A DNA stretch of 64,000 nucleotides. It comes from Candidatus Omnitrophota bacterium. Lineage in GTDB: Bacteria > Omnitrophota > Gorgyraeia > Zapsychrales > Fredricksoniimonadaceae. Numbering within the stretch: the first letter of the stretch is position 1; every line of letters starts with the position of its first letter. The notes below the pieces were generated by a model. That model was not told where the DNA came from, did not search any database, and worked only from the letters and a program-made list of their open reading frames with translations. A program made the translations under genes and the position numbers. Location of the stretch: assembly GCA_021731625.1 (NCBI GenBank), contig JAKFXC010000062.1, forward strand, positions 4,479 to 68,478, in the 5' to 3' direction. Shown here one piece after another: positions 3,694 through 61,337 of the stretch.

Positions 3694-4623
3694 ATGATTT
3701 TATTTTTAGTCTTTGTGTTGATGGCGGTGCCCGCCGGTGCTGCCGTGGCAGCGACGGAAGAGGTTAAACCCAAACGCGTGGTCACCACCTTTACGATTTT
3801 ACAGGATATGGCGCAAAATGTGGCCGGCACCGTGGCCATTGTCGAATCCGTCACCAAACCCGGGGCGGAAATCCATGAATATGAGCCCACTCCGCTGGAC
3901 GTGGTCAAAGCTCAATCCGCTGATTTGGTTTTGTGGAACGGCCTCGGCCTCGAGCGATGGTTTGAAAAATTTTTCAGCAAAATCAAAAAGGTCCCCAGCG
4001 CGTATTTATCGGAAGGGATCGAACCTATGAGCATTGTGGAGGGCCCATACACCGGAAAAGCCAACCCCCATTCCTGGATGTCCCCGGCCAACGCGGTCAT
4101 TTATGTGGAGAACATACGTCAGGCCTTCATTGCCATGGACCCGGCCAACGCCGAAACCTATAATACCAACGCTGCCCTCTATATCGCCAAAATCAAAGCC
4201 GTGGACGAGCCTGTAAGGAAGAAATTGGAGGAAATCCCCCAGGACCAACGCTGGTTAGTCAGCAGCGAAGGGGCTTTTTCGTACCTTATTCGAAATTATG
4301 CCATGAAAGAACTTTATTTGTGGCCAGTCAATGCCGACAGCGAGGGCACTCCCAAACAGGTGCGCAAAGTGGTGGACACCGTGCGCAAAAATAAAATTCC
4401 GGTTGTTTTTGCGGAGAGCACCGTGAGTGACAAACCCATGCGGCAAGTGGCCAAGGAAACCGGGGCCCGGTTTGGCGGAGTGCTTTACGTGGACTCGCTG
4501 ACCGATGAGAACGGGCCAGCCTCCACATATCTTAAGCTCCTGCAATTTAATGCTAACACCATTGTCGAGGGGTTTGCCGGTAAAACGCATAAGGATGAGG
4601 GAGTTTCCAATGGATCAAAATGA
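3694..4623 (+). CDS. Metal ABC transporter substrate-binding protein (TroA/SitA/MntC/ZnuA cluster 9 family)
   Basis: Signal peptide; conserved [15 protein letters not shown] and DSL motifs. It lacks the His-rich ZnuA loop, and the two downstream permeases suggest an Mn/Fe/Zn SitABCD-type system. Confidence 0.8.
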
Positions 4624-5497
4624 AGGACCATTGACTTTGGAGCTTAAAGACCTCACCGTGGTCTATAACAACGGGTATGTGGGGTTGAAAAATGTCAGTT
4701 TTGACTTAGGCCCGGGCACGGTGTGCGCCTTGGTGGGTGTCAACGGCAGTGGCAAGTCGACTCTCTTTAAAGCGATCATGGGTTTTTTAAAACCGGCCCG
4801 GGGCAGTGTCCGGCTCGCCGGGCACTCGGTGGGGGCTGCCCTTCATAAAAATTTGGTGGCCTATGTGCCGCAATCCGAGGACGTGGATTGGACTTTTCCA
4901 GTAAGTGTTTGGGATGTGGTGCTGATGGGGCGTTATGGGTACATGAATTTTTTAAGGATCCCTAGCCTGGAAGATCAGAGCATCGCATTAAAGAGCCTGG
5001 AACGGGTGAATATGCAGGATTATCGCGACCGTCAGATCGGCGAATTGTCCGGCGGGCAGAAAAAGCGGGTCTTCTTGGCCCGGGCCTTAGCCCAGGGCGG
5101 GGGGATCATGCTGTTGGATGAGCCCTTTACCGGTGTGGATGTGAAAACAGAGTCCGCTATCATTGGACTTTTGCAGGAATTGCGTCGGGACGGACACATC
5201 ATTTTAGTCTCTACTCACAACCTGGGTTCGGTGCCGGATTTTTGTGACCAAGTGGTGCTTATTAATCGCACGGTGTTGGCGTTTGGGCCGACGGCGGAAG
5301 TCTTCACTGAGGCGAACTTGGGACGGGCTTTCGGTGGTGCCTTGAGACATTTGAAGTTTGACCACACCGATGTGCCGGGGGCGCGCAATGAAGTGGTGGT
5401 CTTAAGCGATGATGAGCGTCCGCTGGTCTTGGGACAGGACGGCCAGCCCAGCCATTTGGAAGACACGGAAAAAGATAAGAAGGACAAGGAACCATGA
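4610..5497 (+). CDS. Metal ABC transporter ATP-binding protein (SitB/MntB/TroB-like)
   Basis: Walker [10 protein letters not shown], signature LSGGQKKR, Walker B MLLDEP. Start set at ATG 4610 ([15 protein letters not shown]), overlapping the SBP stop by 14 nt. Confidence 0.8.
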
Positions 5498-43490: not shown

Positions 43491-43919
43491 ATGTTCACCA
43501 AAGATTTTGCCGTCGACCATCCCAGGATCATGATTGTAGATGACAATGTGGAGTTTTTAGAGGAATTGGAAGAAATCCTCTCTCAAAGCGGATACGACAC
43601 CCAGACGCTGCCGGACAGCACCAAAGCGTTGGAGCTGGCCAATGAAACCAATCCAGACCTTATCCTGCTGGATTTGAAGATGAGCCCCAAAAGCGGCTTT
43701 CAATTGGCGGACCAATTGCGGCATTCGGAGAAAATGAAGGATGTCCCGATTGTGGCCATGACGGGGTTTTTTACCGAGCAAGAGCATGTGCTCATGATGA
43801 AACTTTGCGGCATCCGGAATTTTATCCTTAAACCTTTTATGCCGCTTAATTTGATCGCCAAAATTGAATTCGCGCTGGGCCGGCGTCCTTCGAATGAATT
43901 TGACGAAGACACCACGTGA
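43491..43919 (+). CDS. Single-domain response regulator
   Basis: IMIVDDN, LLDLKMS and IVAMTG motifs; 142 aa. Confidence 0.75.
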   Translation: MFTKDFAVDHPRIMIVDDNVEFLEELEEILSQSGYDTQTLPDSTKALELANETNPDLILLDLKMSPKSGFQLADQLRHSEKMKDVPIVAMTGFFTEQEHVLMMKLCGIRNFILKPFMPLNLIAKIEFALGRRPSNEFDEDTT

Positions 43920-44007
43920 AGTTTTTTTAATGGTATATTCATGCCCTCTTCACATGGGGTTTAGTAATCTACATCCAGTAGATTCACTTAAAACTAACGG
44001 GAGGGCC

Positions 44008-44304
44008 ATGATGCGATTTTTAATGATTTGTGTTTTACTTACCATGCCTGTGCTTTCCGCAACCGGCTGTGCGCACCGGGCCAGCACCACCCGGACAGAA
44101 ACAACCACCACCACAGACCGGGCCAGCAACATCGAGCCGGCGCAAGACACCACAATCCAGACCAAGACCCAGACCACCGAAACGAACACCACCGACACAC
44201 CTCACAGCGAGGGGGGTATTTTGGGCGGGACTTTCCATGTGGTGGGGGAAATTTTGGCGTTGCCGTTTAGGGTCATTGCCGGTGTTTTTGACGCCATTTT
44301 TTAA
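44008..44304 (+). CDS. Thr-rich lipoprotein
   Basis: Lipobox LSATGC after a signal peptide, then a TTTTTD/TQTTETNTTDT low-complexity region. The ORF-track start at 43864 is an upstream extension lacking signal logic. Confidence 0.5.
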   Translation: MMRFLMICVLLTMPVLSATGCAHRASTTRTETTTTTDRASNIEPAQDTTIQTKTQTTETNTTDTPHSEGGILGGTFHVVGEILALPFRVIAGVFDAIF

Positions 44305-44321
44305 GAAGGGGGGAGAGGGCC

Positions 44322-44855
44322 ATGAATCTTATTGCTTCGAGCATGATTTTCGGATTTCTGTTGTTATTTTTGGGCCGGAAATTGTTCTGGCTTATGGTGG
44401 GCCTCGCCGGCTTCTGGGTCGGTATGCACTATTCCGCCGTTTGGTGGCCGCAAAACACCCCAGCTATGCAAATGGGCCTAGCGTTGTTCTTCGGCATCAT
44501 GGGCGCGGTCCTGGCCATGGCCTTTGAATGGGCGGCGGTCATGTTGGCCGGGTTTGGGGCCGGCGGGTATTTGAGTTTATATTTTGTCGGGCCTATCCTG
44601 GATCCGTCCTATACGATGTGGATGTTTTTGGCCGCAGGGGTGATCGGCATGGTGGTGATGTATTTTGTTTTTGATAGGGCCTTGATCCTCATTTCCGCGG
44701 TCACCGGGGCGGCGCTGATTGTAACCCATTTAAGCCTGGCGCCGATATGGCAGAGCGTCGTGTTCATTGGCCTAGCGATCGGCGGGGCTGCGGTGCAGTA
44801 CTATAGTTTAGGGGAACGGGAAACGCATTTGGCAGAGCCGCACCCCCAGACCTAA
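44322..44855 (+). CDS. Polytopic membrane protein (6 predicted TM helices), unknown family
   Basis: Hydrophobicity pattern only. Confidence 0.45.
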   Translation: MNLIASSMIFGFLLLFLGRKLFWLMVGLAGFWVGMHYSAVWWPQNTPAMQMGLALFFGIMGAVLAMAFEWAAVMLAGFGAGGYLSLYFVGPILDPSYTMWMFLAAGVIGMVVMYFVFDRALILISAVTGAALIVTHLSLAPIWQSVVFIGLAIGGAAVQYYSLGERETHLAEPHPQT

Positions 44856-45860: not shown

Positions 45861-45890
45861 ACCTGCTGATACCTGCTGATACCTGCTGAT
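45861..45890. repeat. Perfect 3x tandem repeat of 10-bp unit ACCTGCTGAT in the promoter region of the first giant paralog
   Basis: Seen directly: acctgctgat acctgctgat acctgctgat. Confidence 0.9.
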
Positions 45891-45930
45891 AAAATTTGCA
45901 TATCCGATAAAATTATGGCACACTTTCTCT

Positions 45931-48710
45931 ATGTTAGATTATCTATATAAGAAGATGGTCAGCCTGGCGCTAGTCACCGCCTTTGTCGGCTCTTTCGTGT
46001 ATTTACCCCCATCTCAGGCCCACGCGGATGTCCTTTTAGGGCTGCCTGCCCCCGGTACTATGGTCAGCTTAAGCCCCGGCTATGCCACAGCTTTAATCAA
46101 AGGTTTAACCCTTCGTAAAGACAATCCTTTTTTGTTTGATTTCGTGGTGGACACCGGGGATAGCGGCCTCTCCGCTGAGGCTTAAAAATAGAAGGGGACC
46201 GTTTAGTCAAATATTTCTTTGCCTGTTTGACCATTCCTGAAAAAGATCTCTGGGTCAACTTAAGCCCCTATGAAAAAGATCGAATAGTCCCGGAAGCCTT
46301 AGGACAAACCGCTTTGGGCCGGGATCTACTCGCCCAAGACTATTTCCTCAAACAATTAACCGCTTCGCTGATTTATCCAGAGAAAGGCCTGGGCAAAACG
46401 TTTTGGGACCGCGTCTATGCCCAAGCCCAGCAAAAATTTGGGACTTCGCAGATTCCCGTCAATACTTTCAATAAAGTCTGGATCATGGCAGATAAAGCCA
46501 ACGTTTATGAGAGCGGTCAAACCGCCTTTGTGCTCGACGGTCATTTAAAGGTGATGCTCGAAGAGGACTACCTAGCGCTGCAGAAGAATGCCAAACCGAA
46601 ACAAAATGCCGGGACCTCTCAAATTGTCCGCGAAATCCCGGCTTCCATATCAACGGCTCATGCCCAGGAAAGCCGGGATTCCCTGCTGGCTAAAAGTATT
46701 CTGCAGGAAATCATCATCCCGGAGCTTGAGCGGGAAGTGAATACGGGTAAGAATTTTGCCACTTTGCGCCAAATTTATAATTCCCTTATCCTGGCCAGCT
46801 GGTACAAGAAGAATCTCAAGGAAGCATTACTCAATGAAGTTTACACCGATAAGAGCATGGTCAAAGGGGTGGATCTTTCTGACCCTTCTATAAAAGAAAA
46901 GATTTATGAGCAATATCTGAAAGCGTATAAGCAAGGCGTATTTAACTATATTAAGGAGGAACCCCGGGGTGACGGGCAAACTCTTCCTAAGAAGTATTTC
47001 TCCGGTGGATTTGGCGTTGCCCAGAATTTTCAGGCCACGTACCATTCTAATTCTCCTGGCAGTAGACCACTCTTAAATAGAGCCATGCAAAGCCTTTCAA
47101 AGACCTTAGCGGTGGTTGCCGTTGCGTTGGTGATGAATAGTCCGTTAGCTGTTTCGGCCGCTGGCTATGATGCGAAAACAGACACCATTATTGATTTTAG
47201 CGGGCGAGCGCACAAGGCTCCGACTTTGGATGAAATGATAGAGCGAGGTATGGATCCGAGGGATCCTCGGAGTTTCCTGCCCCCAGATTATTTTCGTGAT
47301 CTTTTTGGATTTGAAGAAATGATGCTGGCAGATCCTAAAATAAAGACGGAGGTCCTGAGAAGGATAGCGGAGGCGGTCAACCCGCGTGGGGCAATGTCCG
47401 CCGAAGAACTGGCGTATTTAACCAAATTTTCCAGCGAATTGTTGAGGAGACTGGCAGGATATGATCAGCCTCCTTCGCCGTGGTATACCGCACCAGGAGT
47501 AACTATTCCCAATGATGTCCAAGTCGACGCTCAAAAGGCAAAAAGAACGGCGGGTTTCAAAACAACCCAAGAGTGGGTGGATTATTTGGAAAACGAACTG
47601 CGCTTACCGCGGTTGATGGTTGAAGAATTGAGGGAGCTCAATGAAAAAGGCAAAGATGTTTTTGCTATCATCGATGCGTTGCCCCTGAAAGGATTCTCAC
47701 CACGGGTCGCCGATTTAGCCAGAGGGTTTCTCAAGGCGAGGTTTGCCAACGATCAAAAAACCCAGCTGCAGACGATCATGGACTTGATAAGAATACGAGA
47801 GGAAGCCCTAATTCTACGATCAGATGATCTGCTTCTGCTGGCTGTTTTTAAGGCGGGGTATTTTACCATACTCGAGACGAAGCGATTAGATCAAATAGCT
47901 GGTATTGCCGCAGAGGATGTAAGCCGCTATAACAGTGTGTTTTTTGGTCATTTGCTGGCCCAAATGATGGGGGACTCAGACCAAAAAGCGGAATTAAAGC
48001 AACGCATCAGGCAAATGTATGTGACAGCGTATGCCCGCGCATGGGCAGCCAAGCGAAACACCCTAAACGGACTATTTGCGGACAACGGTATTTACACCCG
48101 ACCCATGTTTAATTCCGCAGGCATGGACAACACCGAATTGCGGCGTATGAATGACATAGCCCAAGGCATTATCACGGCGGCGACGGCCTTAAGACTAGCC
48201 AATGGCAGTCAGGATCGCCTGGAGTCTTTAATCAGAGAATGGGACAAGGCTAAAGGCAATGTCTCATTTGCTTTCTCGAGAATTTTCCATGCCGTAGTCA
48301 TGGGACGACAAGCCGGTGATGTGCAGAATATAGATTTCCCAGGAATATTGGACACATTGAATGCTCTCCCGCCCAATAGAAGACCGGACCGTGACGATCT
48401 TCGAAGATGGGCCGAGCTTGTCCAAAAAAATAGAACTAAGCAAGAGAAGGCAATGGTGGCGCCGGACGAGGCCGATCAAGCCGTAATCACGGAGACCAGC
48501 GATGCCGTATCACCCGGCGGTATCGACTTAAAAACGGCCAACCTGGCCATGACGGTCACCAAAGACGGGAACGGCGGTGTGCAGGTGCTATTTGACCCGT
48601 TACTGCTGGAGGATCTCAGAACTCAAGGTATAAAATCTGCAAACCCCATCATTGTGGATATTAAGCTCATGAGTTCGGCGCAGATTCCCGCTCTCCTTTC
48701 TACACCATGA
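45931..48710 (+). CDS. Giant-protein family paralog 1 (~925 aa if the frameshift is repaired): signal peptide + shared N-domain + unique middle + shared C-terminal module; frameshifted at 46181-46189
   Basis: ORFs 45931..46185 and 46227..48710 are collinear with paralogs 2 and 3: ...DSGLSAEA | LKIEGDRLVKYFFACLTIPEKDLWVNLSPYEK versus LSGEALKQESLKLIKYFLAGLTVPQKDLWVNLSPYEK. One extra nucleotide in the ctt-aaaaa run would restore the frame. Confidence 0.6.
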
Positions 48711-51700
48711 GTCTACGACGCTATATTCTTATTTTGATAATCAGCACAAACTTGATGGCTCCATTGCCGGCACCGCAGGCCTCCGAACTGATTTTGCCGC
48801 AGCCGGGCAGTATGCTCACGCCTACAAAAGCATACAATTCGGTATCGGTCAAAGGCCTAACCATTGACCCTAAAAATCCACTGCGATTTAGTTTTATTGT
48901 TGAACCCGGGGATACGGGATTAAGCGGCCTGCAGCTTAAAGATGAATCCCTCAAGCTTATTAAATATTTTCTTTCGGCATTAACCATACCGGAAGACGAA
49001 ATGTGGGTCAACCTTTCGCCTTACGAAAAAAATCGCATCATTACCGATCAATTCGGATCAACTCAAATGGGCCGGGATTTATTGGCCCAAGACTACATCC
49101 TTAAACAGCTCAGCGCTTCTTTGATCTATCCGGAACATGCTTTAGGAAAGGCGTTTTGGCAAAAAGTATATTCTCAGGTTAAGGATCAATTTAGAACCAC
49201 GCAAATGCCGGTTAATATGTTCAACAAAATTTGGATCGTTCCGGACCAAGCGTCAATCTATGAGCATCAAAACAGCGCGTTTATTGTTAACTCGAGATTA
49301 AAAGTGTTAATGGAACAAGACTATCTGGCCACTCAAAAGAATGATCAGGTTATTTCAAAAGAGCCGCAGGATCGCGGGCTATCTCAAATCATACGCGATA
49401 ATATCGTGCCTGCGATCGAAAAAGAGGTCAACGAAGGGGCCCACTTTGCCAATTTACGGCAAATCTATCAAGCCATGATATTAGCGGTTTGGTATAAAAT
49501 TCGGCTCAAAGACAGCCTCTTGGGAAAGACGTATGTCAATTTGCATAAAGTCAAAGGTGTGGCACTGGCGAACACCAAAGACAATGACATGATTTATCAG
49601 AATTATCTTCGGGCTTTTAAAAAAGGAGTCTTTAACTACATCAAGGAAGAAGAGAATTTGGCAAATCACGAAATGGTTTCCAGAAAATATTTTTCCGGGG
49701 GATTTATGCCGGCTCAATTAGCCCCCATCGTAAAGCAAGGTTTAGTATTCAACCTGCCAGATAGGGCGATCCTAAGCCCAGAGGCTCAAACTGTCACCTG
49801 GGAAGCGGAGGCACTGACCTCGGACCAGGGGATGACTGGAGAATTGCAACAAAGTCTAAAAATGTCGGATCAAGATTTTCAAGTCCTGCTGGGTAGACTG
49901 GCCAAAGATAAGTACATCACCGCAAATTCGGAAGTGGATTTAGAGTTTAAAGGCCTGAAGCCGGCTTACGCCAGGCTTTATCCTGCTCACCATGACCGAA
50001 TTTCAAAGTTACTTTCCGACGGACGTTTAAAACGGCTGGAAAAAATGGAACAAGACCGCAGAGCTTCCATCAAGCAGGAGCTAGGTGATTGGACAGAGAA
50101 AGTCAATGCGGCGGTAAAGCGGAATCAGCAAACAGAAGCAACCAAAAGGGAGGCCTTGGTCCAAAAATGGACACCAACATTTAAAAGATACGGCATTTAT
50201 TATTTTTATTTATTTAAATATATGTCAGAACGTATATTCCACATGCCGTTTAGGTATGAGCTGGAAGATTTTCTCCAAGAATCTGTTGTTGCTTGCCATG
50301 GCGTTGCTGAATTGGGAAAGACAGATGACATTTCGTTTATCATAGCTGCCCAACGGCATTTTCTGCAGTTTTTCGCGGAAGAAGACAGGATACCCTACAA
50401 AACAAAAGTTGGCGTGGTTACAAAGTTGCGGGCTTTGATCGAAAATTATTCTGCCTCCAAGCTTCAAGTGGTGCCAAATAGGTACCTTGTGCCTGCGCTA
50501 CGAGCTGAGTTTCCTAAGCTCCAGCGGTATGTACGCCCCAATGACCCGTTGGAAGGGGAGGTTGAGGCGGGTCATTTCGGATTAATTCCCCTGGAGGAAA
50601 CGTCACGGGAACTATATTTGCAAGCGGCTCTACCTAGAGTCTTGGATCAAACGAAGAAAGCCAATCGTCTTGTCGCTCTGCAATTTGGCCTTGGTGATGA
50701 CATAGAAAAGAGCAATGCATGGATTGCCAAAGAGTTGGGGTATCAGTTCGAAAATAGTGTGCGCTCAAGGTCGTACGAAATCCGGGTGACATTAAGCAAG
50801 AATAAGGCCTTGCGGGACCTTACTGTTTATGATCATCAATGGGTACTGTTCAATGATACTCTAGATTTTTTGCGTTATCAAGAGCGCGCCGCACAGAGTT
50901 CCTCGCCCAAAAAAATTCCTCATGAGCCGGCATTGAATTTTGAAGACGAGCGGCGATTGATGGATTTGGTGCATTTGTGGTTTGCTGCAAGTCAGCTGCG
51001 ATTTCTGCGGGCACTGTATTTAGGAGACAATACCGATAGCTTCAACGAGGGGGTGCAACGAGAAGCTAAACGAAGGATCAATTTATTCCTCACGCTCGGT
51101 GTGTTGTCTGAATTTGGTTTGGGGGAGCAATTAATCCCCACCATTGTCCGCTTGAGCGCCGAAACCCCACTGCAGCGCATGTTTCGTCATGCGGGAGTAG
51201 AGCAATTGTTAAGAATTTCCAATGGGGACATTAATGCCGTGGTTGAATTCGTCATGCAAATGTTTCCCGAGGTATATAAGGAAGAGGATGTTCGGCGTTT
51301 AGCTCGAGGCTATTTTGATTTACCCAAGATTCCGCAAAGTCCCCATGTTGCTCCTCAACAAGTCCTTAGAATTGTTCATAACGTCATTAGTAAAATGGAA
51401 GGTGGCGAGAGTAGACGTAGATATTTGGTCAAAAGACGCTTAGTCCGTGATCTCTACTACCATTCGATCGTAAACAATACATCGCAAGCATTAGAGGGTC
51501 TTAATGCTGCTATCGGCGAAGCCGGCAGCGATCAAGAATGGCAAAATCTTTTAAAAGACACGTATGACTACTATCAACAAGCGACCGCGTTTTATCCACG
51601 CGGCTTTCAGGAGGAAACTGAGGTGGGTCAGGAGCCGATGCTGCCCGCGCAGAGATTTGGTATTTGGGAGGCAGTTTTGTCCCTATCCAATCCTCGTTTG

Positions 51701-53347
51701 GAAAGTGCGGTGCATATGAGTGAAGCCCGTATCGGCAAAACCATTATGGCGATTTTGTCCGTCTTTAATGTGCGCAAGCCGAATAGCAATGACTATGCGG
51801 TGCGGAAGGTCCTCTACACCACCACCAATAGCGCCAAATATGAGGTTTACAATGAGCTTGTGCGGCGTACGAATAAAGAGTTGGATTTGCATGTTATTGT
51901 GGTCGACCGTCAAAACGGCAATCGTGAGCAGCAAGTCGAAGAAGCCATTAAGTTAGCGGAAGATCCAACCAAAAACGTGGTGTTAATCGCCAATTATGAC
52001 GCCGTGAGATTATCACCGGAGGCATTTTCTAAATTTGCTCCTGACGCGCACATTGTTGACGAGGTGGAGTCGCTAAAAAGTGGTGATGCCAAGCGCACTC
52101 CTATCATTTTCGGTATTCCAGCGAAATATCGGGTTGCGGTCAGTGCCCGCGCCGTAGTCAATCGCTCAGAGGATGTCCATGAATTAATTTTGTGGACCCA
52201 GCACCGCGAATTCTTGCCTTGGGGAAGAAAGAAAGAAGACGCATTGCAGGAGCTTAAAGACATGTCCCAAGATCGAGTATTTGAGGTGTTAAGCAGGAAT
52301 CAGAGTCGATGGCGCCGTAGTACCGTTATGCCTGAGGTCAAAGAACCCGTATTTACCAATGAGCCTATTGAATATTCACTGGAGCAGCAACAAAGCATTC
52401 TGAAAATCAGCAGCGTGGATGAATTTGAGGATTGGCAATTAAACGAAGCGCGGGAAGACAAGGGAGACATGAACGATAGTGTTCTGACAAGGATTGATTT
52501 ACTGAGAAGAGCCAGTATTGAGCTGGGCTTGGTTCAAAAAGAAGCCTATTTCGGACAATATATGGACGCGTCCCCAAAAATTCAGCGCCTGGATGCCATC
52601 ATTGACAATGAATTCAAGAGTCAGGGAAAAGTATACGTCGAAGCAGATTTTCCCGAAGCCATTGACCGATTGGTGGCGCGTTATGCCCAAAAATACGGGC
52701 CGCGAGCAGCGGCAGGAATCCATGGTCAAACGCTCGTTAAGGACCGAGTTGATATTATTCGCCGGTTCCGCAGTGACCCGGAATTAAAAATATTGATAGG
52801 GACACCGCATACAACAGCTTCTTCCTTGAATTTGTCTCAGCTGCGAGGTAGTTCTTTCCACAATTCTTTGTTAGTGCGATTAGATTTGCCCGCTCGCAAT
52901 GTCGATGATGGCGATCGTTTGATCGATCCTTGGCAAGATAAGCAAGTCCGGGTGATCTCATTAATAGGCGTCTTTCGAAAGGATGATCTTGCCAAATACA
53001 AGCGATCCATTGATGAGCAGTTCTTCGACTTGCGGTCGGAGAAGCAACGGGTCTTCGAGCATGTTATTGATGGAAAACCCCTCGTTTCGGATGAGGAAAC
53101 GGAAGAAATTAAGGATATGGTTGAGGAGTTTATGGAGCCGTCGGAAATCGACGCTGCCATGATGGAAAAGGGTGGTATCGATTTAAATTCCAAATCCTTG
53201 AAGCTGCACATGAATGGTGATCAACCGGCTGCCTCGTTTAGGGGTACGTTCCTCCCTGCATTTGATGGTCTTTACCCGGTGCTTGTCGATATACAGCCAG
53301 CGAATACTGGTTCGAAATACCCCCCCGGATTATTTGAAAAGCATTAA
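48707..53347 (+). CDS. Giant-protein family paralog 2 (1546 aa, intact): signal peptide + shared N-domain + SNF2-like SF2 ATPase module + shared C-terminal module
   Basis: Shares the N-terminal ~330 aa with the other two paralogs. Internal SNF2 motifs: I SEARIGKTIMAI, II HIVDEVESLKS, III RVAVSARAVVNRSEDVHELILW..FLP; helicase-C-like GIHGQT..ILIGTPHTTASSLNLS and DKQVRVISLIG. Confidence 0.7.
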   Translation: MSLRRYILILIISTNLMAPLPAPQASELILPQPGSMLTPTKAYNSVSVKGLTIDPKNPLRFSFIVEPGDTGLSGLQLKDESLKLIKYFLSALTIPEDEMWVNLSPYEKNRIITDQFGSTQMGRDLLAQDYILKQLSASLIYPEHALGKAFWQKVYSQVKDQFRTTQMPVNMFNKIWIVPDQASIYEHQNSAFIVNSRLKVLMEQDYLATQKNDQVISKEPQDRGLSQIIRDNIVPAIEKEVNEGAHFANLRQIYQAMILAVWYKIRLKDSLLGKTYVNLHKVKGVALANTKDNDMIYQNYLRAFKKGVFNYIKEEENLANHEMVSRKYFSGGFMPAQLAPIVKQGLVFNLPDRAILSPEAQTVTWEAEALTSDQGMTGELQQSLKMSDQDFQVLLGRLAKDKYITANSEVDLEFKGLKPAYARLYPAHHDRISKLLSDGRLKRLEKMEQDRRASIKQELGDWTEKVNAAVKRNQQTEATKREALVQKWTPTFKRYGIYYFYLFKYMSERIFHMPFRYELEDFLQESVVACHGVAELGKTDDISFIIAAQRHFLQFFAEEDRIPYKTKVGVVTKLRALIENYSASKLQVVPNRYLVPALRAEFPKLQRYVRPNDPLEGEVEAGHFGLIPLEETSRELYLQAALPRVLDQTKKANRLVALQFGLGDDIEKSNAWIAKELGYQFENSVRSRSYEIRVTLSKNKALRDLTVYDHQWVLFNDTLDFLRYQERAAQSSSPKKIPHEPALNFEDERRLMDLVHLWFAASQLRFLRALYLGDNTDSFNEGVQREAKRRINLFLTLGVLSEFGLGEQLIPTIVRLSAETPLQRMFRHAGVEQLLRISNGDINAVVEFVMQMFPEVYKEEDVRRLARGYFDLPKIPQSPHVAPQQVLRIVHNVISKMEGGESRRRYLVKRRLVRDLYYHSIVNNTSQALEGLNAAIGEAGSDQEWQNLLKDTYDYYQQATAFYPRGFQEETEVGQEPMLPAQRFGIWEAVLSLSNPRLESAVHMSEARIGKTIMAILSVFNVRKPNSNDYAVRKVLYTTTNSAKYEVYNELVRRTNKELDLHVIVVDRQNGNREQQVEEAIKLAEDPTKNVVLIANYDAVRLSPEAFSKFAPDAHIVDEVESLKSGDAKRTPIIFGIPAKYRVAVSARAVVNRSEDVHELILWTQHREFLPWGRKKEDALQELKDMSQDRVFEVLSRNQSRWRRSTVMPEVKEPVFTNEPIEYSLEQQQSILKISSVDEFEDWQLNEAREDKGDMNDSVLTRIDLLRRASIELGLVQKEAYFGQYMDASPKIQRLDAIIDNEFKSQGKVYVEADFPEAIDRLVARYAQKYGPRAAAGIHGQTLVKDRVDIIRRFRSDPELKILIGTPHTTASSLNLSQLRGSSFHNSLLVRLDLPARNVDDGDRLIDPWQDKQVRVISLIGVFRKDDLAKYKRSIDEQFFDLRSEKQRVFEHVIDGKPLVSDEETEEIKDMVEEFMEPSEIDAAMMEKGGIDLNSKSLKLHMNGDQPAASFRGTFLPAFDGLYPVLVDIQPANTGSKYPPGLFEKH

Positions 53348-53386: not shown

Positions 53387-56300
53387 ATGAACAAATCCAA
53401 AAAAACCGCATACCTTGCTTCCTTTATTATAGTTTCTTTCGTCACCAGTTTTTCGCAAACGCCGGTCTACGCCCAGGAACTGATCCTGCCGTTGCCCGGG
53501 ACCATGGTCACGGCCAGCCCTAAATTTGCGCCAGCCATTATACGCGGTATCCAGTTTAACGCCAAAAACCCCTTCCAATTTGATTTTATCATTGACCGCG
53601 GGGACGACAAGCTCTCCGGGGAGGCTTTGAAACAGGAGTCCTTGAAACTCATCAAGTATTTCCTGGCCGGCTTGACTGTGCCGCAAAAGGACTTGTGGGT
53701 CAACCTCTCGCCGTACGAAAAAGGCCGCATTGTGCCGGACGGCTTTGGCCAAACCGACATGGGCCGCGACCTGTTGGCGCAGGATTACCTTTTGAAACAA
53801 CTGACCGCGTCGCTGGTGTACCCAGAAAAAGAATTAGGCAAAAAGTTTTGGGAAAAAGTCTACGCTAGGGCCAAAGAGCAGTTCGGTTCGGCCCAAATAC
53901 CCGTTAATACCTTTAATAAGGTGTGGATCGTGCCGGACAAGGCCGTGGTGTTGGAGCGTAAAGGCGGCGTGTATGTGTCTCAAAGCCATTTGAAGGTGAT
54001 GCTGGAACAAGACTACCTGGCTTCTCAAAAAAACGTTAAGGTAGCTAGGTCCCAGAAGGGGATTACCACTGCTTCAGACAAGGCCGTGTCTTCCCAAACC
54101 ATCCGCGACATCATTCTCCCCGAGATCGAACAGGAAGTCAATGAAGGCGCCAATTTCGCCGCCTTGCGCCAGGTGTTCAATTCTCTAATTTTGGCCATCT
54201 GGTATAAAAAGAACCTCAAAGATGCGGTGCTCAATAGAGTTTATGCTAACTCCAACAAAATCAACGGCATTGATATTGAAGATAAAGACAGCAAGGAGAA
54301 AATTTACCAGCAGTACCTGCAGGCGTTTAAAAAAGGTGTGTATAGCTATATTAAGGAAGATGCTACGCCTGCGGGTCAGTCAGCCGCCAGGAAATATTTT
54401 TCCGGCGGCGTCAACGTGGAAAACTTGGTTGTGGAAACCGAAAAAGAAAACCAGGCCATGGCCCTCACCATCGCTGAACGGAGCCGCAATGGCGATCTGG
54501 CTCAAATTAGCTGGTTGACCCAGGAGGTTAAAAATCCTAGGTATAGACAAAATTACACACAGGCCCGGTATACCTTCTTAATGAGCACCAAAGGCTATCA
54601 GGAGAGCCTGGGTCGTAAATTTGCACTGCAACTGGATGCTAATCGTGGTGATGGTGTGCTCTCGTATCATCAGCAATTATTGCAAAAAGCATTTAGCCTC
54701 GACCTGAAGAAGCAGAAGGAATTCCTGGCTGCATATAAAGATTATTTTAAATATAACCGCTATGGGATGGAAAATTCATCGATCCCCCGGACCTCGAAAA
54801 ATTGGTGGGTACGGAGCCCGCATTCGGATACTACGAGGGTGAGCATTTCACTTCCTATGCGACCGATGAACTGCTGGCTGTGGATTATCTTAAGACTTTT
54901 GCCCCGGCAGATTTTGACCGCGAACTCAACTGGCTGCTCGTGGAAGTTCCCGCCTTAACGGACGAGCAGGATATGAGTTCCGAAAAGCTGCTGCAATATT
55001 TGGACGAGGCCATTAAGCGCTTGTTCTCCTTTGCAGACCTTAAGCTTCATACGGATGTCCGCTTTCAAGTAGAGCAAGACTTACGCACCTATTTTTATAA
55101 ACAGCTGCTAAATCGCAAAAGTACTTCCCAGCGTATAATCCGGTTGTCCAACACCACGTCGCGCGATGGCCAGCAATCTAACAAAGGCACAAACCTGACA
55201 GGTCTTGACCAGTGGAAACTATTGTCCTGGATTGTAAAATTTGGCAATGTATCCACGATTGAATCCTGGGGCGGGGCTGCAAATCAATCCGCGGTCTTAA
55301 AGACCAAGCGCATTTATCAAGTGCCCGGACAGGAAGAGCCGCTGAAAAATTGGGCCGAGGACCCTTTTTTTAATTTAAGAGAGCAGACAAAATTGTTGGA
55401 AGATAACCTCAAGGAAGCTTTTGGGGAAGACCTGGATCGGTTGGAGGATGATGACCGCGAAAGGATTTTCAATCGGTACAAGCGCGACTTTGACCGCAAA
55501 ATCTTATCCGAATTTGACCTTAATGCGATTCTGAAAAGATACAATCTCAGTGAACAGGTGAAGAATCGCGTCCGTAAAGTCTATGAGATTAAGCAGGAAA
55601 TGCTTTTACGCGGGACTTTTCTGGTTGCCCTGGATCAGTTTCCGGAACCGGTGGTGAAGGAATTTGTGGAGGTGGCATGGCGGAATGGAGTCGATGTTTT
55701 TCGTATTTTTGATGCCATGAACCGGATCAACGAAATCGATGGGCCGCTTAAATACGCCCGGGCCCTGGGAGCTAAAGTCCAGCCTGCCATTCATTACACC
55801 AAAGGTTTTCCTAGGGGGATTCCTAAATATGTGGAGCTAGCCAAGGAATTGGTCAGAATCAGCGGGCACGCCCTGGATAGTTTAGTGATCAAGGATGCCG
55901 CAGGCCAGTTGGAGCCGGAGGAAGCCTATAAACTGGTTAAAGCTTTGCGTCAGGCGGGCATCACTGTTCCGATTCAAATCCATACCCATGATACCAATGG
56001 TAATCGGCAATTGACGTTGTTGGAAGCTATCCGAGCCAACGGGGAAGATTATCCCATTATTGTGGATGTGTCCACCGGTGAGTTGGCCGCACCCTTGGCC
56101 CAGCCCAATGACCGCCATTTTTTAAACATTGTGCAGGGAACAAAGTGGGAGGGGACGCTCATTAAAGATGTGGATTTTGAGCAAATGGAGCAAGCGGAAT
56201 TTTTTATAAAAAGCGACATTAACCTTCACAGTCCCTCTGTGCCAATGACGACCGAAGATCGTTTACGCATCGTGAGAGCGAACATTCCCGGAGGTTTAAA

Positions 56301-57489
56301 AACGAATAATGACAATGATATCAACAATGCCTTACATATGTATGAAAAACTCATCCGTAAAGTTTTCGATATTATTTTTTGGGATCCGCGTGGGAACTTG
56401 ACCGCCAAGGGCCAGGCCTTTAGAGCTGCCTTAGTACGGCTTATGGAGGAAGAAATACCAAGGGTTCGTAAGGACATGGGCAATTTCTCATTGGTCACGC
56501 CCACCAGCGAGTGGGTGGTCAAGCAGTCGCTAAATAATGTTATAGGGTGGATTATTGCAGACCAAACGGTTTTGAACACCAGCAATCCGCAGCAGTGGCA
56601 GCTGTCCATCAAAGAAGATCTCCTCCGTAAAAACCGTAAGAGCCAATATCTGTACAGTGTTGGTTTGGCCGCTCATTTGCATGAAGATCTGCAAAATTAC
56701 CTGGTTGAGTGGACCCAGGACACGGAATTGCAGGATATGTATCCGGATATAAACACAGAGTTGCTGGCTTGGGCGTTTGATATCGAAGGCATTAATATTG
56801 AATTGGATGATCAAAATCGGTTGACTGATAGTCCGCTCGAAAAATTTCAAAATTTAAGAAAATTTTTTGAAAAAAGATTTGTGGATGTGCCTACCATCAA
56901 AGTTTTGCATAAAATGGAAAAATTACGGGAAGGCGGCGATGCGGACGCTCTAGAGAATCTGGAATCTCAAGAATTTTCTTGGGACCTGATCAATAGGATT
57001 TTAAAAAACGAAAAACCCATGAATATCATCAAAAGGCCGGAAGATTATGTCCAGAACTACCAACAGCTGCGGAATAAATATCCTCAGGTCAAGGGTTCAC
57101 CGGAAGATAAAATCTTGGCCAGAGTTTTTCCCAAGGAAGGTCAGTTTTCAAATTTAATTGAAACCAGGAGGATCTTAGAAGAGCAGATCGACCAAGCCCG
57201 CCAAAACTTGCCGGCAGATCATGAGAAGATTCGCAGTTTAGCTGCGGCTTATAAACGTGCCGGCGGTCGCAGCGGAGAGCGGCGTAGCGCAGCGAGTGCC
57301 GCCATGATCGGTGATGACAAAGACGGCGGCATCAATTTGAATCCGGATTTTTATGATCTGCAGATTAATCGCGAAGGTAAAAGAGCTATTGATTTTGCCA
57401 TGCAGGGACCTGCTTTAACTCCGCAGCAAGTCCAAGGCCTCACCCCTGTCATCCTCGGCGTCAAGATCTTGACGCATTTGGAAATTTAA
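53387..57489 (+). CDS. Giant-protein family paralog 3 (~1367 aa if the frameshift is repaired): signal peptide + shared N-domain + pyruvate-carboxylase-type carboxyltransferase TIM-barrel domain + shared C-terminal module; frameshifted in C5 tract 54784-54788
   Basis: ORFs 53387..54958 and 54802..57489. One extra C gives a continuous ...YGMENSSIPPDLEKLVGTEPAFGYYEGEHF. The internal region NGVDVFRIFDAMN...AIHYTKG...LVIKDAAGQLEPEEAYKLVKALRQAGITVPIQIHTHDTNGN...DVSTGELA aligns with the PC/OadA carboxyltransferase domain. Confidence 0.6.
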
Positions 57490-57514: not shown

Positions 57515-58063
57515 ATGGATTTCGAAGCGGTTTCCAAAATGGTCATGGATCAGTTTGGGAAACACCAGGTGCGGTGTGCCATTATCGGTGGTTTTGCCCT
57601 GCATGCGGCGGGGTTCCATCGGGCTACCGTCGATATTGATTTTCTTGTCCATGTTCAGGACATGCCGAAGGTTAAGGCCACTTTGGCAGCTTTAGGGTAC
57701 GACCTTAAGCATGAAAGCAAAGACGCCGCCAATTTTTGGGGTAAAATGGATACCTTGGGCAACATTGATTTCATCATTGCCCACCGCAAGTATGCTCTGG
57801 CCATGCTTGAGCGTTCTAAACCTTTTGAAATCGTCAAAGGCTGCACAGTCAATGTGATTGTCCCCGAGGATATCATTGGGTTAAAAGTCCAAGCGTTTAG
57901 CAATGATCCTGACCGCTACCGCCAAGATATAGCCGATATTTACTGGTTAATCAAGAATTACCGTGAACAATTGGATTTAAATTTACTCCGGGAATATTTC
58001 GGATTATTTAATTGTTCAGATAAGTTAGAGCAAATTTTAAAAGAGACGAACAATGCTCAGTGA
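57515..58063 (+). CDS. Minimal nucleotidyltransferase-fold protein (AbiEii/AbiGii toxin-like family)
   Basis: The IGGFALHAAGFHRATVDIDFLV motif is GG(x)...DxD of the NTase fold, as in AbiEii-type proteins. Confidence 0.55.
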   Translation: MDFEAVSKMVMDQFGKHQVRCAIIGGFALHAAGFHRATVDIDFLVHVQDMPKVKATLAALGYDLKHESKDAANFWGKMDTLGNIDFIIAHRKYALAMLERSKPFEIVKGCTVNVIVPEDIIGLKVQAFSNDPDRYRQDIADIYWLIKNYREQLDLNLLREYFGLFNCSDKLEQILKETNNAQ

Positions 58064-58519: not shown

Positions 58520-59031
58520 TGTTTGAACCAGTTCTGTTCCAGGCATTGCCGCAGCTGCAAGCGGGCCCGATAGAGCAGTACCCATAGATTAGTCGAAGAT
58601 ACCCCTAAAATCTTACAAATTTCCTCGCTTTGCATCGCTTCCAGTTTGCGCAGACGGAAGGCTTGCGCAGCTTTGTCCGGCAAACGCCCCATGCAGTCCT
58701 GGAACAGCTGCCAAAACTCCTTGTTTTCCAGCAAGGCGGCGGGGTTAAATTGCCAATTGCCGGGGGCTTTGGCCAAATGGCCATAATCGGCATTGTCAAA
58801 AAATTGCTCCACGTGCATGTCAGCTTCGACCAGTTGCGAGGCCGGCACTTCCCTATATGTAAGACGCAGATAATCTGCGATTTTATGTTTGAGGATGCCG
58901 ATCAACCAAGTTTGTTCGCTGGATTTACCTTGGAAATGGGCACGGTTCTGCAAAGCAGAAAGCAAGGTTTCCTGTACCAGGTTTTGGGCTTGGTCTGGCT
59001 GGGCGATCGATTTGAGGGCGTAGGCATACAA
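58516..59031 (-). CDS. ECF-subfamily RNA polymerase sigma-70 factor (TTG start)
   Basis: Region 2 (LVQETLLSALQNRAHFQGKSSEQTWLIGILKHKIADYLR) and region 4 HTH (SEEICKILGVSSTNLWVLLYRARLQLRQCL). Confidence 0.8.
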   Translation of the reverse strand: MYAYALKSIAQPDQAQNLVQETLLSALQNRAHFQGKSSEQTWLIGILKHKIADYLRLTYREVPASQLVEADMHVEQFFDNADYGHLAKAPGNWQFNPAALLENKEFWQLFQDCMGRLPDKAAQAFRLRKLEAMQSEEICKILGVSSTNLWVLLYRARLQLRQCLEQNWFKQ

Positions 59032-59199
59032 GCTCGCCGTATAAATCGACCCAATCCTCGGGATCTGAAGAAGATGCGGAAGACATCAGCCCTCATTCAA
59101 CCTGAGACGGACAAAAAAGGCAAGAATTTTGTAAGGATTTGCTGGTATAATCGACTAATACGCAAAGGCAAAGAAAATCAGGAAAGGCCGGTCCCATTG

Positions 59200-60738
59200 A
59201 TGAATGCCCCTGCAAACCATGATATTCTTAATTTCATAGGATTCTTTTTCGCCGGCTTGACAGTCAACCTTACCCCGTGCGTGTACCCCATGCTTGCGGT
59301 GACGGCGTCGCTATTTAAGCCAAAACCTGAATTGCGGGAAGACCTTCGGCATTCTTTTGCCAGGGCCCTGGCGTATTTTTTGGGCATTGTCTTTACCTAT
59401 TGCGCCCTGGGGTATTTTGCCGCTTCGACAGGTAAGTTATTCGGCAGCGCTCTGCAAAGCCAGTGGGTGCAGGGGGTTGTCGGCCTGTTCATGCTGGGTT
59501 TAGCCCTGTCTATGTTTGGCTTTTTCCACTTGCGTATTCCGGCTGGAATTCTAAGCCATCTGGGTAAATTCCGCAAAGCCGATTATCCGGGGCTGTTTGC
59601 CTCCGGGATGCTAGTCGGCGTTTTTGCGGCGCCGTGCATCGGCCCGCCGGTGCTGGCCCTGCTGGCGGCCGTGGCGGACAACGGCAATCCGCAATACGGG
59701 TTCACGGCGTTCTTGACATTTTCTTCCGGGTTGGGGTTGCCCTATTTGCTTTTGGGGACTTTTGAGAATTTGATTGTCAAATTGCCCAAAACTGGGACGT
59801 GGCTCATTTGGATGCAGCGTTTCTTTGGGGTGGTCTTGCTGGGTTTTTCTTTTTTCTATTTGTCGGTGGCGTTTGGCCCACATTCAATCAAGAAAAATAG
59901 GGACTCGATTTGGAAACCGTACAGCGTTGAAGCGGTGCAAGGGGCTTTGGCGGCGCATACGCCGGTCATCATCGACCTTTTTGCCGAATGGTGTTTGAGC
60001 TGTTATGAATTGGAAGACCAGGTGTTTGCCAAACCAGCGGTCAAGGCAGAGCTGGCCAAGGCCGTCACGTTGCGGGTGGACATGACGGACGTTAATACCC
60101 CGGAAAATCGGCAATTTGGCGAACAATATGAGATCATTGGCTTGCCGACGGTGATTTTTTTAGGGCCGGACGGCAAAGAGATTCGAGAGGCGCGGGTGGA
60201 GGGGGTCAGTTCTTTGAAGGATTTTTTGAAGTCGCTGGACATGCAGCAGAAAAGTTTTGGCGTAACCCCGGTAAAGGAGGGTCCGATGAGCGATGCCCAA
60301 TCCAACAGGGTCCGCATTTTTGATGCGGCGAGTCAAACATATAAGGTGGTGGACAAAGTCGTTAAATCCGACGAGGAGTGGAAGAAAATCTTGACCCCGG
60401 AGCAGTTGCGCGTGACCCGCGGCCACGGCACCGAGCGGGCTTTTTGCGCCCTGCCCACCAAGCACACCAAAGGCATTTACAAATGCGTGGGTTGCGGCAC
60501 CGATTTATTTTTGGTGGGTAATAAATTTGAGTCTGGCACCGGTTGGCCGAGCTTTTGGCAGCCGCTCGATGAGGCCAATGTGGGTACCCAAGTGGACAAG
60601 CAATTCGGCATGGTGCGCACGGAAGTGCATTGCGCACGGTGCAATGGGCATTTGGGGCATGTGTTTGATGACGGCCCACCGCCTACCGGAAAACGCTACT
60701 GCATCAATTCTGTGGCCTTGAAATTTGAGGAGGCATAA
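59200..60738 (+). CDS. Fusion protein: DsbD/CcdA-like transmembrane thiol-disulfide transporter + thioredoxin-like domain (WCLSC) + methionine-R-sulfoxide reductase MsrB
   Basis: CcdA-type TM region with LTPCVYPML and AAPCIGP cysteine motifs; Trx CXXC AEWCLSCYELED; MsrB RGHGTERAF...CVGCG...GWPSF...CARCNGHLGHVF. The ORF-track N-terminus (58630) overlaps the antisense sigma gene and is rejected. Confidence 0.75.
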   Translation: MNAPANHDILNFIGFFFAGLTVNLTPCVYPMLAVTASLFKPKPELREDLRHSFARALAYFLGIVFTYCALGYFAASTGKLFGSALQSQWVQGVVGLFMLGLALSMFGFFHLRIPAGILSHLGKFRKADYPGLFASGMLVGVFAAPCIGPPVLALLAAVADNGNPQYGFTAFLTFSSGLGLPYLLLGTFENLIVKLPKTGTWLIWMQRFFGVVLLGFSFFYLSVAFGPHSIKKNRDSIWKPYSVEAVQGALAAHTPVIIDLFAEWCLSCYELEDQVFAKPAVKAELAKAVTLRVDMTDVNTPENRQFGEQYEIIGLPTVIFLGPDGKEIREARVEGVSSLKDFLKSLDMQQKSFGVTPVKEGPMSDAQSNRVRIFDAASQTYKVVDKVVKSDEEWKKILTPEQLRVTRGHGTERAFCALPTKHTKGIYKCVGCGTDLFLVGNKFESGTGWPSFWQPLDEANVGTQVDKQFGMVRTEVHCARCNGHLGHVFDDGPPPTGKRYCINSVALKFEEA

Positions 60739-60800
60739 GGATAGCAGTTTGGCAGGAGAGCATTGCTGACTTTAACTACACATTTGCCGAGGATAAGACC

Positions 60801-61337
60801 ATGAGCGATGCCAATTATCAAAAAGCCACTTTTGCCGGGGGCTGCTTCTGGTGCATGCAGCCTTTTTTGGAAAAGCTTAAAGGGGTCAAAAAAGTCACGG
60901 TTGGCTATACCGGCGGCCAGACCGTCAATCCAACCTATGAGCAAGTGACCTCCGGCAACACCGGACATGCCGAAGCGGCAGAAGTTTTGTTTGACCCGCA
61001 GGAGATTTCCTACGCCAAATTGCTCGACGTGTTCTGGCGCAACATTGATCCCACCACCGAGAATCAGCAATTTGTGGACATCGGCACCCAGTACCGCAGT
61101 GCGGTGTATTATCACGATGCCCAGCAGAAGCGTCTGGCGGAAGAATCCAAGAAGCAGCTAGAGGCTTCAGGCAAGTTCGATAAGCCGATTGTCACTGAGA
61201 TTTCCGCCGCTTTGCCGTTTTATCCGGCCGAGAATTACCATCAGGACTATTACAAGAAAAGCCCGCTGCATTACAAAATGTACAGCACCGGCTCCGGCCG
61301 AGAGCAGTTCTTGCAGAAGGCATGGGGCAAGGACTGA
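60801..61337 (+). CDS. msrA: Peptide methionine-S-sulfoxide reductase
   Basis: Canonical GGCFWC active site, YHQDYY and the whole-length MsrA pattern. Confidence 0.9.
   Translation: MSDANYQKATFAGGCFWCMQPFLEKLKGVKKVTVGYTGGQTVNPTYEQVTSGNTGHAEAAEVLFDPQEISYAKLLDVFWRNIDPTTENQQFVDIGTQYRSAVYYHDAQQKRLAEESKKQLEASGKFDKPIVTEISAALPFYPAENYHQDYYKKSPLHYKMYSTGSGREQFLQKAWGKD

Follow-up and report, generated by a model that had tools for sequence, protein, structure and literature searches.

A conserved frame that carries interchangeable payloads, with sharp breaks in similarity at junction motifs, is a feature common to the polymorphic toxins (CdiA-CT after VENN, Rhs after DPxGL, and MafB) and to MARTX, which also occur as many paralogs per genome, commonly in tandem arrays. 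Cargo proteins of the type IX secretion system (T9SS) end in a C-terminal domain (CTD) that is a 70-100 residue, seven-stranded (Ig-like) beta-sandwich and works without a conserved N-terminal domain. The Omnitrophota are widespread, ultra-small bacteria thought to be predators or parasites, for which attention has so far been on giant proteins. The giant proteins, designated Archaeovorins, are >10,000-30,000 amino acids (aa) long, have many membrane helices, and are reported to carry C39/S8 peptidase or SecA-like regions (bioRxiv 10.1101/2023.11.21.568195; 10.64898/2026.06.07.730766). Here, we describe a family of Omnitrophota proteins represented by three consecutive genes (paralogs 1, 2 and 3) within a 64,000 nucleotide stretch of a Candidatus Omnitrophota genome (assembly GCA_021731625.1, contig JAKFXC010000062.1, positions 4,479 to 68,478), hereafter the window. 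Each protein has a conserved N-terminal domain (N-domain) and ends in a short shared module (C-module). These two parts make up a frame around cargo that can be exchanged, with the tail as its C-terminal cap. Family members are Sec-exported and occur in multiple copies, and nearly all of those with names come from Omnitrophota metagenome-assembled genomes (MAGs).

The shared C-terminal module

The preliminary description of the window had reported a shared stretch at the C-termini of the three paralogs, and the peptides that it quoted are present where it placed them. Pairwise comparisons of the three tails, with 22-41% identity over 17-54 residues and BLOSUM62 scores of 35-51, are by themselves not convincing, and a first, word-indexed search with the three C-termini, which under-reports the family, returned only 5 matches, to metagenomic fragments. 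The consensus obtained from metagenomic fragments is PGGIDLNP.N..M....G....F.FDPA........GL.PVI..I.P.....LLGL. A C-module profile was built from 12 external metagenomic sequences, with zero window sequences included, and used to search the 1,225 pieces generated by six-frame translation of the window. This external profile matches exactly three C-termini, those of paralogs 1, 3 and 2, with E-values of 3.7e-11, 2e-8 and 1.8e-5, respectively, the next match having an E-value of 0.24. Matches at exactly these three sites confirm the earlier observation, and the shared C-terminal module is real, far beyond chance. There is no Pfam or NCBIfam model for the C-module, and no match to such a model over the three C-termini at E≤0.1.

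When 1.84 billion representative proteins were searched exhaustively by HMMER with the C-module profile, 6,466 protein clusters matched at E≤1e-3, 3,177 of them at E≤1e-10. The search for other carriers that was proposed with the preliminary description has, therefore, a clear outcome: thousands of proteins carry the tag. The module is ~65 residues in length, with the pattern GGIDLN…F.FDPAM…G..PVI..I.P…LLG. For almost every one of the 150 best matches, no more than ~10 residues separate the end of the module from the C-terminus. The proteins matched in the database range from 72 to 2,646 aa.

Family extent and architecture

The domain order in family members is a Sec-type signal peptide, the N-domain, a variable payload and the C-module (GGIDL ... 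PVI..I.P....LLG). The N-domain is ~330 residues long, is recognizable by the motifs WVNLSPYEK and RDLLAQDY, and ends with ...RKYFSGG. Searching with the N-domain alone identified 1,371-1,402 proteins, and those with names are almost all hypothetical proteins of Candidatus Omnitrophica/Omnitrophota MAGs. A scan of one genome per species located at least 588 loci, and the best 80 were retrieved. Sixty-three of these 80 are labeled Omnitrophota or Omnitrophica, 15 are labeled uncultured Planctomycetales (one MAG series) and 2 are labeled Ca. Elulimicrobium; one MAG supplies up to 7 of the 80. Tandem family copies are present in about a fifth of the loci, and family proteins range in size from 0.4 to 3.8 kaa, mostly without membrane helices.

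With one more locus added, the architecture set comprised 81 loci and 1.02 Mb. The N-domain is present on 94 open reading frame (ORF) pieces and the C-module on 77, with both on 63 uninterrupted ORFs, and all of the remaining copies of either run off a locus end or lie in same-strand, frame-broken genes. In one MAG (L049 4691-4695), an N-domain ORF and a C-module ORF are in the same frame, split by a single in-frame stop codon. Within the 63 complete ORFs, the N-domain starts between residues 1 and 127 (by residue 65 in 61 of them), the C-module ends 0-13 residues before the stop codon in 58 and at most 31 residues before it in the rest, and the cargo is 206-2,127 aa long (median 795). About half of the long C-module matches in the database appeared to have no N-domain, but longer cluster mates of such matches (3,808, 2,463 and 1,575 aa) do carry the N-domain, and the apparently N-domain-less matches are therefore truncated gene calls. 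The C-module is not autonomous; it is confined to proteins with one particular N-domain.

A viral origin of the family was considered and rejected, as viral contigs are almost without family members; only 3 loci were found among 2.9 million such contigs, all at contig ends. Partial internal C-module starts (GGIDLTPA.MNLQT) are present inside some long members, at residues 616-637 of P0147 and 979-1003 of P0188, and their sequences look like scars of the end-to-end fusion of two family genes. The GGIDL start of the C-module also has a look-alike within the N-domain, which reads 'K.GGIDI.DK' or 'GV.I.D' and is at approximately residues 295-310 (for example residues 282-298 in P0281 and P0283). 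We also considered whether the segment following the N-domain duplicates the C-module's first half, and rejected this. The likeness is at the motif level only (GG-hydrophobic-[DN]-[LF]), and profile matches to this segment are non-significant beyond one cargo-less member, with 3 of 267 at E<0.01 versus 0 in shuffled sequences. The literature found on Omnitrophota, Omnitrophica and Velamenicoccus, including the giant-protein preprints, has no description of the family, and 'GGIDLN' has no literature match; the family appears to be undescribed.

Conservation of the frame and replacement of the cargo

The identities of the N-domain and the C-module are strongly correlated, with a Pearson r of 0.76 calculated for 8,128 pairs from 128 complete proteins. 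The cargo does not follow: when N-domains are 80-90% identical, the cargo has no BLAST match at E<1e-5 in 118 of 120 pairs. Similarity ends at ...PRKYFSGG in all 6 aligned pairs, and on the C-terminal side restarts at GGIDL in 3 of the 6 and up to ~55 residues upstream, sometimes at 'AM', in the other three. Same-genome paralogs have DNA sequences that are only 66-82% identical, as exemplified by one pair with N-domains 89% identical as protein and 76.5% as DNA. With the protein conserved and the DNA this divergent, the frame is held by purifying selection rather than by recent gene conversion, and ongoing gene conversion between paralogs was rejected as an explanation on the same evidence.

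A Gly-Gly (GG) pair is invariant at both cargo junctions. The motif [DN]xAM has a frequency of 1.4-1.6 per 100 residues over the first 60 residues downstream of the N-domain and over the last 30 upstream of GGIDL, compared with 0.016 expected from composition, 0.13 in cargo and 0.01 in the N-domain, an enrichment of ~100-fold at both junctions and ~8-fold inside multi-domain cargo. It might mark a site of cleavage, or it might form a hinge or cap a helix. In the window, for example, paralog 1 has NRAM following its N-domain, paralog 2 has DAAM ahead of GGIDL, and paralog 3 has ENQAM and SAAM. Gene callers often begin fragment ORFs at the Met of [DN]xAM.

The cargo in 53 complete proteins of other genomes belongs to 55 Pfam families, each present in at most 5 members. 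These include methyltransferases, HATPase_c, radical SAM, HEAT, TPR, Glu and Ala dehydrogenases and PPDK_N, together with GDSL lipase, histidine phosphatase, GNAT, PP2C and ATP-grasp domains, and precomputed annotations of family members add zeta toxin, protein kinase, HAD and sugar transferase. The payloads are cytoplasm-type enzymes, most of which need ATP, S-adenosylmethionine (SAM) or NAD.

Export and membrane topology

Among 198 distinct N-termini of the family, 194 contain a hydrophobic segment. The signal peptides listed as examples have a basic start, a hydrophobic segment and an A-x-A-type site (YAQ, AQAQ), followed directly by LPxPGxM, the first conserved motif. No later hydrophobic 19-mer is present in 99 of 125 complete members, and the prediction for most members is therefore complete passage across the inner membrane. 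In 10 of the 125, among them paralog 1, a hydrophobic 19-mer lies no more than 120 residues beyond the N-domain. Given this low frequency, we rejected the idea that family members in general have a membrane helix following the N-domain, which would leave the cargo in the cytoplasm.

Predicted structure of the frame

One of the 128 complete members, P0100, is naturally cargo-less, with 438 aa and a ~20-residue linker joining the N-domain to the C-module. The AlphaFold2 model of P0100 (79-sequence alignment) has a mean predicted local distance difference test (pLDDT) score of 79 and a predicted template modeling (pTM) score of 0.75. In this model, an alpha/beta N-domain is followed by a linker predicted with low confidence (residues 345-361), and the C-module, at pLDDT 81-93, contains short helices and two short strands. 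The paralog 1 module modeled alone (52-sequence alignment) has a pLDDT of 72 and a pTM of 0.34, with two helices (residues 32-40 and 58-65), no strands and otherwise coil; the two AlphaFold2 runs used different sequences, P0100 at full length and the paralog 1 module alone. Judged from these models, the C-module does not look like an autonomous folded domain. The N-domain has no detectable fold relative.

The three genes in the window

Paralogs 1, 2 and 3 are consecutive, head to tail, on the plus strand. Each has a signal peptide and a ~330-residue N-domain, the three N-domains are 53-58% identical to one another, and the cargo is unrelated. The preliminary description had called the proteins giant; at 925, 1546 and ~1366 aa they are better described as large. 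The C-module profile cores are at 48492-48677 (paralog 1), 53150-53299 (paralog 2) and 57298-57480 (paralog 3).

The paralog 1 gene (45931..48710, ~925 aa) is frame-broken near 46180, and ORF analysis places codons 1-84 in 45931..46182 and the remainder in 46179..48710. The signal peptide MLDYLYKKMVSLALVTAFVGSFVYLPPSQAHA precedes an N-domain (45940..47000; 64.7 + 426.3 bits versus the N-domain profile) that ends in KKYFSGG. This is followed by a hydrophobic 19-mer at 47106..47162 (Kyte-Doolittle mean 2.02) that is possibly membrane-spanning, by cargo in which no domain is recognizable with the Pfam and NCBIfam models, and by the C-module PGGIDLKTANLAMTVTKDGNGGVQVLFDPLLLEDLRTQGIKSANPIIVDIKLMSSAQIPALLSTP at 48492..48707 (E 3.7e-11 for the whole ORF piece, 38 bits for the matched stretch), with PGGIDL beginning at 48513. 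The stop codon of paralog 1 overlaps the start codon of paralog 2 (ATGA). Paralog 2 (48707..53347, 1546 aa) is intact, with an N-domain at 48719..49693 (464 bits), cargo that comprises a SNF2-related ATPase and a helicase C-terminal domain at 51722..52804 (PF00176, E 8.8e-7; PF00271, E 1.4e-3), and a C-module at 53150..53344 (E 1.8e-5, 19.6 bits) in which the central strand/DPAM segment is shortened. Paralog 3 (53387..57489, ~1366 aa) is present as ORFs 53387..54958 and 54757..57489, and has an N-domain at 53396..54400 (523 bits), cargo at 55576..56550 that matches carboxyltransferases of the pyruvate carboxylase/oxaloacetate decarboxylase alpha type (PF00682, PF02436), and a C-module at 57298..57486 (E 2e-8, 28.8 bits) that stops early, without the LLG end. 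The match of the paralog 3 cargo to NF006761 has an E-value of 8e-57 and yet is under the curated cut-off.

Both frame breaks are single-base changes at A/T homopolymer runs, near 46180 (46170-46190) in paralog 1 and near 54766 (54745-54770) in paralog 3. N-domain profile positions 4-82 and 84-342 are in the two frames of paralog 1, contiguous across the break, consistent with breaks that are recent or that are assembly errors. The first ORF of paralog 3 is identical to a public protein, P0006, that carries the same break. Other ORFs in the window also overlap oddly, for example 3694..4623 with 4505..5497, and at 43864-44855, and given these overlaps the assembly may carry indel errors. The window C-modules score 38, 29 and 20 bits (paralogs 1, 3 and 2, respectively) versus a median of 64 bits in other genomes, and the three proteins are divergent family members.

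Upstream of paralog 1, in the interval that follows the stop codon of an MscS-like gene (45855), there are three tandem copies of a 10-mer, TACCTGCTGA, at 45862-45891. An AbiEii-like nucleotidyltransferase gene (57515-58063) is located directly after paralog 3. The window also encodes two-component systems, the MscS-like channel, and glycogen and trehalose enzymes. At 58630-61337, a fusion of a DsbD transmembrane region, thioredoxin and MsrB (SelR) is followed by MsrA, an envelope methionine-sulfoxide repair module. The ORF at 61420-63129 has a MarR-type regulator domain (residues 33-105) and TolC-like outer-membrane efflux repeats (residues 385-557); either the fusion is genuine and unusual, or a frame error has joined two separate genes.

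The dedicated secretion apparatus that, according to the preliminary description, should be sought nearby was not found, nor was any conserved neighboring gene. No ABC transporter or membrane-fusion protein (MFP) genes adjoin the three window genes, and no T9SS machinery (PorK/L/M/N, Sov) was seen within the 64 kb window. Across 82 family loci, there is no immunity-like or other recurrent downstream gene family, the window genes themselves directly following one another.

Proposed function of the frame

Our preferred interpretation, to which we assign a probability of about one half, is that the N-domain and C-module form a two-part carrier frame for a Sec-exported payload, with the C-module acting together with the N-domain. 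Sec export and signal-peptide cleavage would occur first. The short C-module, in which regular secondary structure is sparse, might then dock back on the N-domain, or both might be read together by envelope machinery encoded elsewhere in the genome, so that the payload would be handled as a loop between two flexible Gly-Gly hinges and be sorted, put on display or handed on. Candidate sites for its release are the junction motifs, GG and the enriched [DN]xAM. As most of the payloads need ATP, SAM or NAD, they would make most sense as effectors working inside another cell. A targeting role for the tail is plausible, as is a sorting or anchoring role after Sec export. The preliminary description had placed the tail among secretion and sorting signals that follow divergent cargo, and this is the right category, but the handle is inseparable from the N-domain and belongs to no named signal family.

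Several observations weigh against this interpretation. Co-divergence of the N-domain and C-module is expected for two parts of one gene, whether or not they are in physical contact. The 64 kb window has no secretion genes save the TolC-like ORF ~4 kb downstream, and no partner machinery is apparent; the genes outside the family that recur most among the 82 loci are housekeeping genes, each in at most 8 loci. If the hydrophobic segment in paralog 1 is a real membrane helix, the cargo and C-module of that protein would be cytoplasmic. The window copies are also degenerate, with two of the three genes frame-broken, and may be non-functional here.

The alternative that survives best, although we consider it improbable, is a structural, flagellin-like scaffold in which the C-module completes the fold of the N-domain, the payload is inserted and displayed on a polymer or surface layer, and the tail has no sorting information. 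Coupling between the N-domain and the C-module is obligate and they diverge together, P0100 is intact yet has no cargo, and the C-module has high pLDDT within the full-length P0100 model. The N-domain is also under very strong purifying selection across paralogs, with 53-58% identity in the window and up to 92% elsewhere while the DNA is 66-82% identical, which is what co-assembling subunits would show. However, P0100 is the only cargo-less protein among the 128 complete members, and payloads of up to >2,000 aa would be unusually large insertions.

Less likely again, the tail, and perhaps also the head, might be a removable pro-piece cleaved at Gly-Gly or [DN]xAM by a dedicated peptidase, for example of the C39 double-glycine type, that frees the payload, making the C-module a processing handle. 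The invariant GG at both junctions, the concentration of [DN]xAM there and, at a lower level, inside multi-domain cargo, and the coincidence of the similarity breakpoints with these motifs are all in accord with processing, and C39 and S8 peptidase domains have been reported on Omnitrophota giant proteins that they have been proposed to cleave (bioRxiv 10.1101/2023.11.21.568195). No peptidase gene is, however, linked to the 82 family loci, and the motifs are equally explicable as hinges or helix caps. The N-domain also has no invariant Cys, His or Ser, making self-cleavage of the Cys/Ser/His type unlikely.

It is very improbable that the C-module works by itself as one of the known types of C-terminal signal for secretion or sorting, and this is already contradicted for each named family. 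Thousands of proteins have the module at their very C-terminus, behind divergent cargo, which would suit such a signal, as would the TolC-like ORF at 61420-63129, but the module was never found without the N-domain and has no ABC/MFP gene or other conserved neighbor. The preliminary description had suggested a type I secretion system (T1SS)-like or T9SS-like signal. A T1SS-type signal is excluded by the N-terminal Sec signal peptides, by the lack of adjacent ABC/MFP genes and by the lack of RTX repeats, as each protein has a single GGIDL and no tandem GGxGxDxUx array. A T9SS-like signal is also excluded, as the module has no CTD model match and no predicted beta-sandwich. With respect to the sortase, exosortase and rhombosortase signals (LPXTG, PEP-CTERM and GlyGly-CTERM, respectively), there is no NCBIfam model match and no C-terminal membrane helix with a basic tail; the best 17-mer in the C-module has a median hydropathy of 1.32 and lies in a segment with prolines and polar residues, and the tails are often acidic. 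The conserved C-terminal region, at only ~65 residues, is also far shorter than the beta-barrel of ~250 residues or more in autotransporters (type V secretion). Of the defining features tested for T1SS/RTX signals, T9SS CTDs, sortase-type signals and autotransporters, at least one is lacking in each case. Chance or low-complexity resemblance without common origin, to which the low pairwise identity of the window copies over short stretches might have pointed, is already refuted by the independent profile matches (E 4e-11 to 2e-5) at exactly these three sites and by the database matches at E≤1e-10, 3,177 proteins in which the module is likewise terminal.

A broader proposal, which goes beyond the two-part carrier frame and is offered tentatively, is that the family might be an undescribed, phylum-wide delivery platform. 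Thousands of Sec-exported proteins, with a frame formed by a novel-fold N-domain and the GGIDL tail, would carry cytoplasm-type enzymes, namely helicases, kinases, methyltransferases, radical-SAM and metabolic enzymes, between the two Gly-Gly hinges and deliver them to or into host or prey cells, as the mid-sized, modular counterpart of the Archaeovorins. The family is large enough to matter for an understanding of Omnitrophota and, with a simple recognizable frame, thousands of members, sharp cargo boundaries and ordinary gene sizes, provides a more tractable handle. Should the frame serve in export or delivery, the cargo list would be a ready catalogue of the effectors of the phylum, the two end modules would be an easy annotation marker for effectors, and the frame could be tested as a carrier of heterologous cargo. 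On a conservative reading also, the N-domain and C-module are two large uncurated domains that merit family models, as family proteins are now annotated as hypothetical or are misnamed after their cargo.

Comparison with known systems

T9SS cargo shares with the Omnitrophota family an N-terminal Sec signal peptide and a conserved, extreme C-terminal module after unrelated domains. The Omnitrophota module differs from the T9SS CTD in being ~65 residues, mostly coil with one helix, in having no CTD model match, and in always being accompanied by the N-domain. Flagellins share co-evolving conserved termini around a variable center that is able to hold whole enzymatic domains, and an insert-less minimal member exists. 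The Omnitrophota family, however, has neither the coiled-coil D0/D1 fold nor type III secretion-type export, having instead a cleavable Sec signal, and its termini are very unequal (330 versus 65 residues).

The Archaeovorins are from the same phylum and have overlapping payloads (methyltransferase, HATPase_c, radical SAM, HEAT, TPR, PPDK_N, HAD and GNAT). The N-domain and the GGIDL module are not described in the two reports of these giant proteins (bioRxiv 10.1101/2023.11.21.568195; 10.64898/2026.06.07.730766). The Archaeovorins and the family described here pose the same puzzle, namely cytoplasm-type enzymes on proteins that are predicted to be exported.

The polymorphic toxins and MARTX have no sequence or fold similarity to the Omnitrophota family. 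The export of the family is Sec-dependent, unlike the T1SS of MARTX or the type VI secretion system of Rhs; CdiA-type two-partner secretion (TPS) is also Sec-dependent, but the family N-domain is predicted to be mostly helical rather than a TPS beta-helix. Polymorphic toxins have a cognate immunity gene downstream whereas the Omnitrophota family is without a conserved one, and the Omnitrophota payloads are mostly housekeeping-type enzymes and repeat domains, unlike recognized toxins. In MARTX, as in this family, conserved regions flank the payload on both sides, and the junction motifs could be processing sites. With no homology to either, the family has its closest analogy in the conserved-frame, variable-payload logic of the polymorphic toxins and MARTX.

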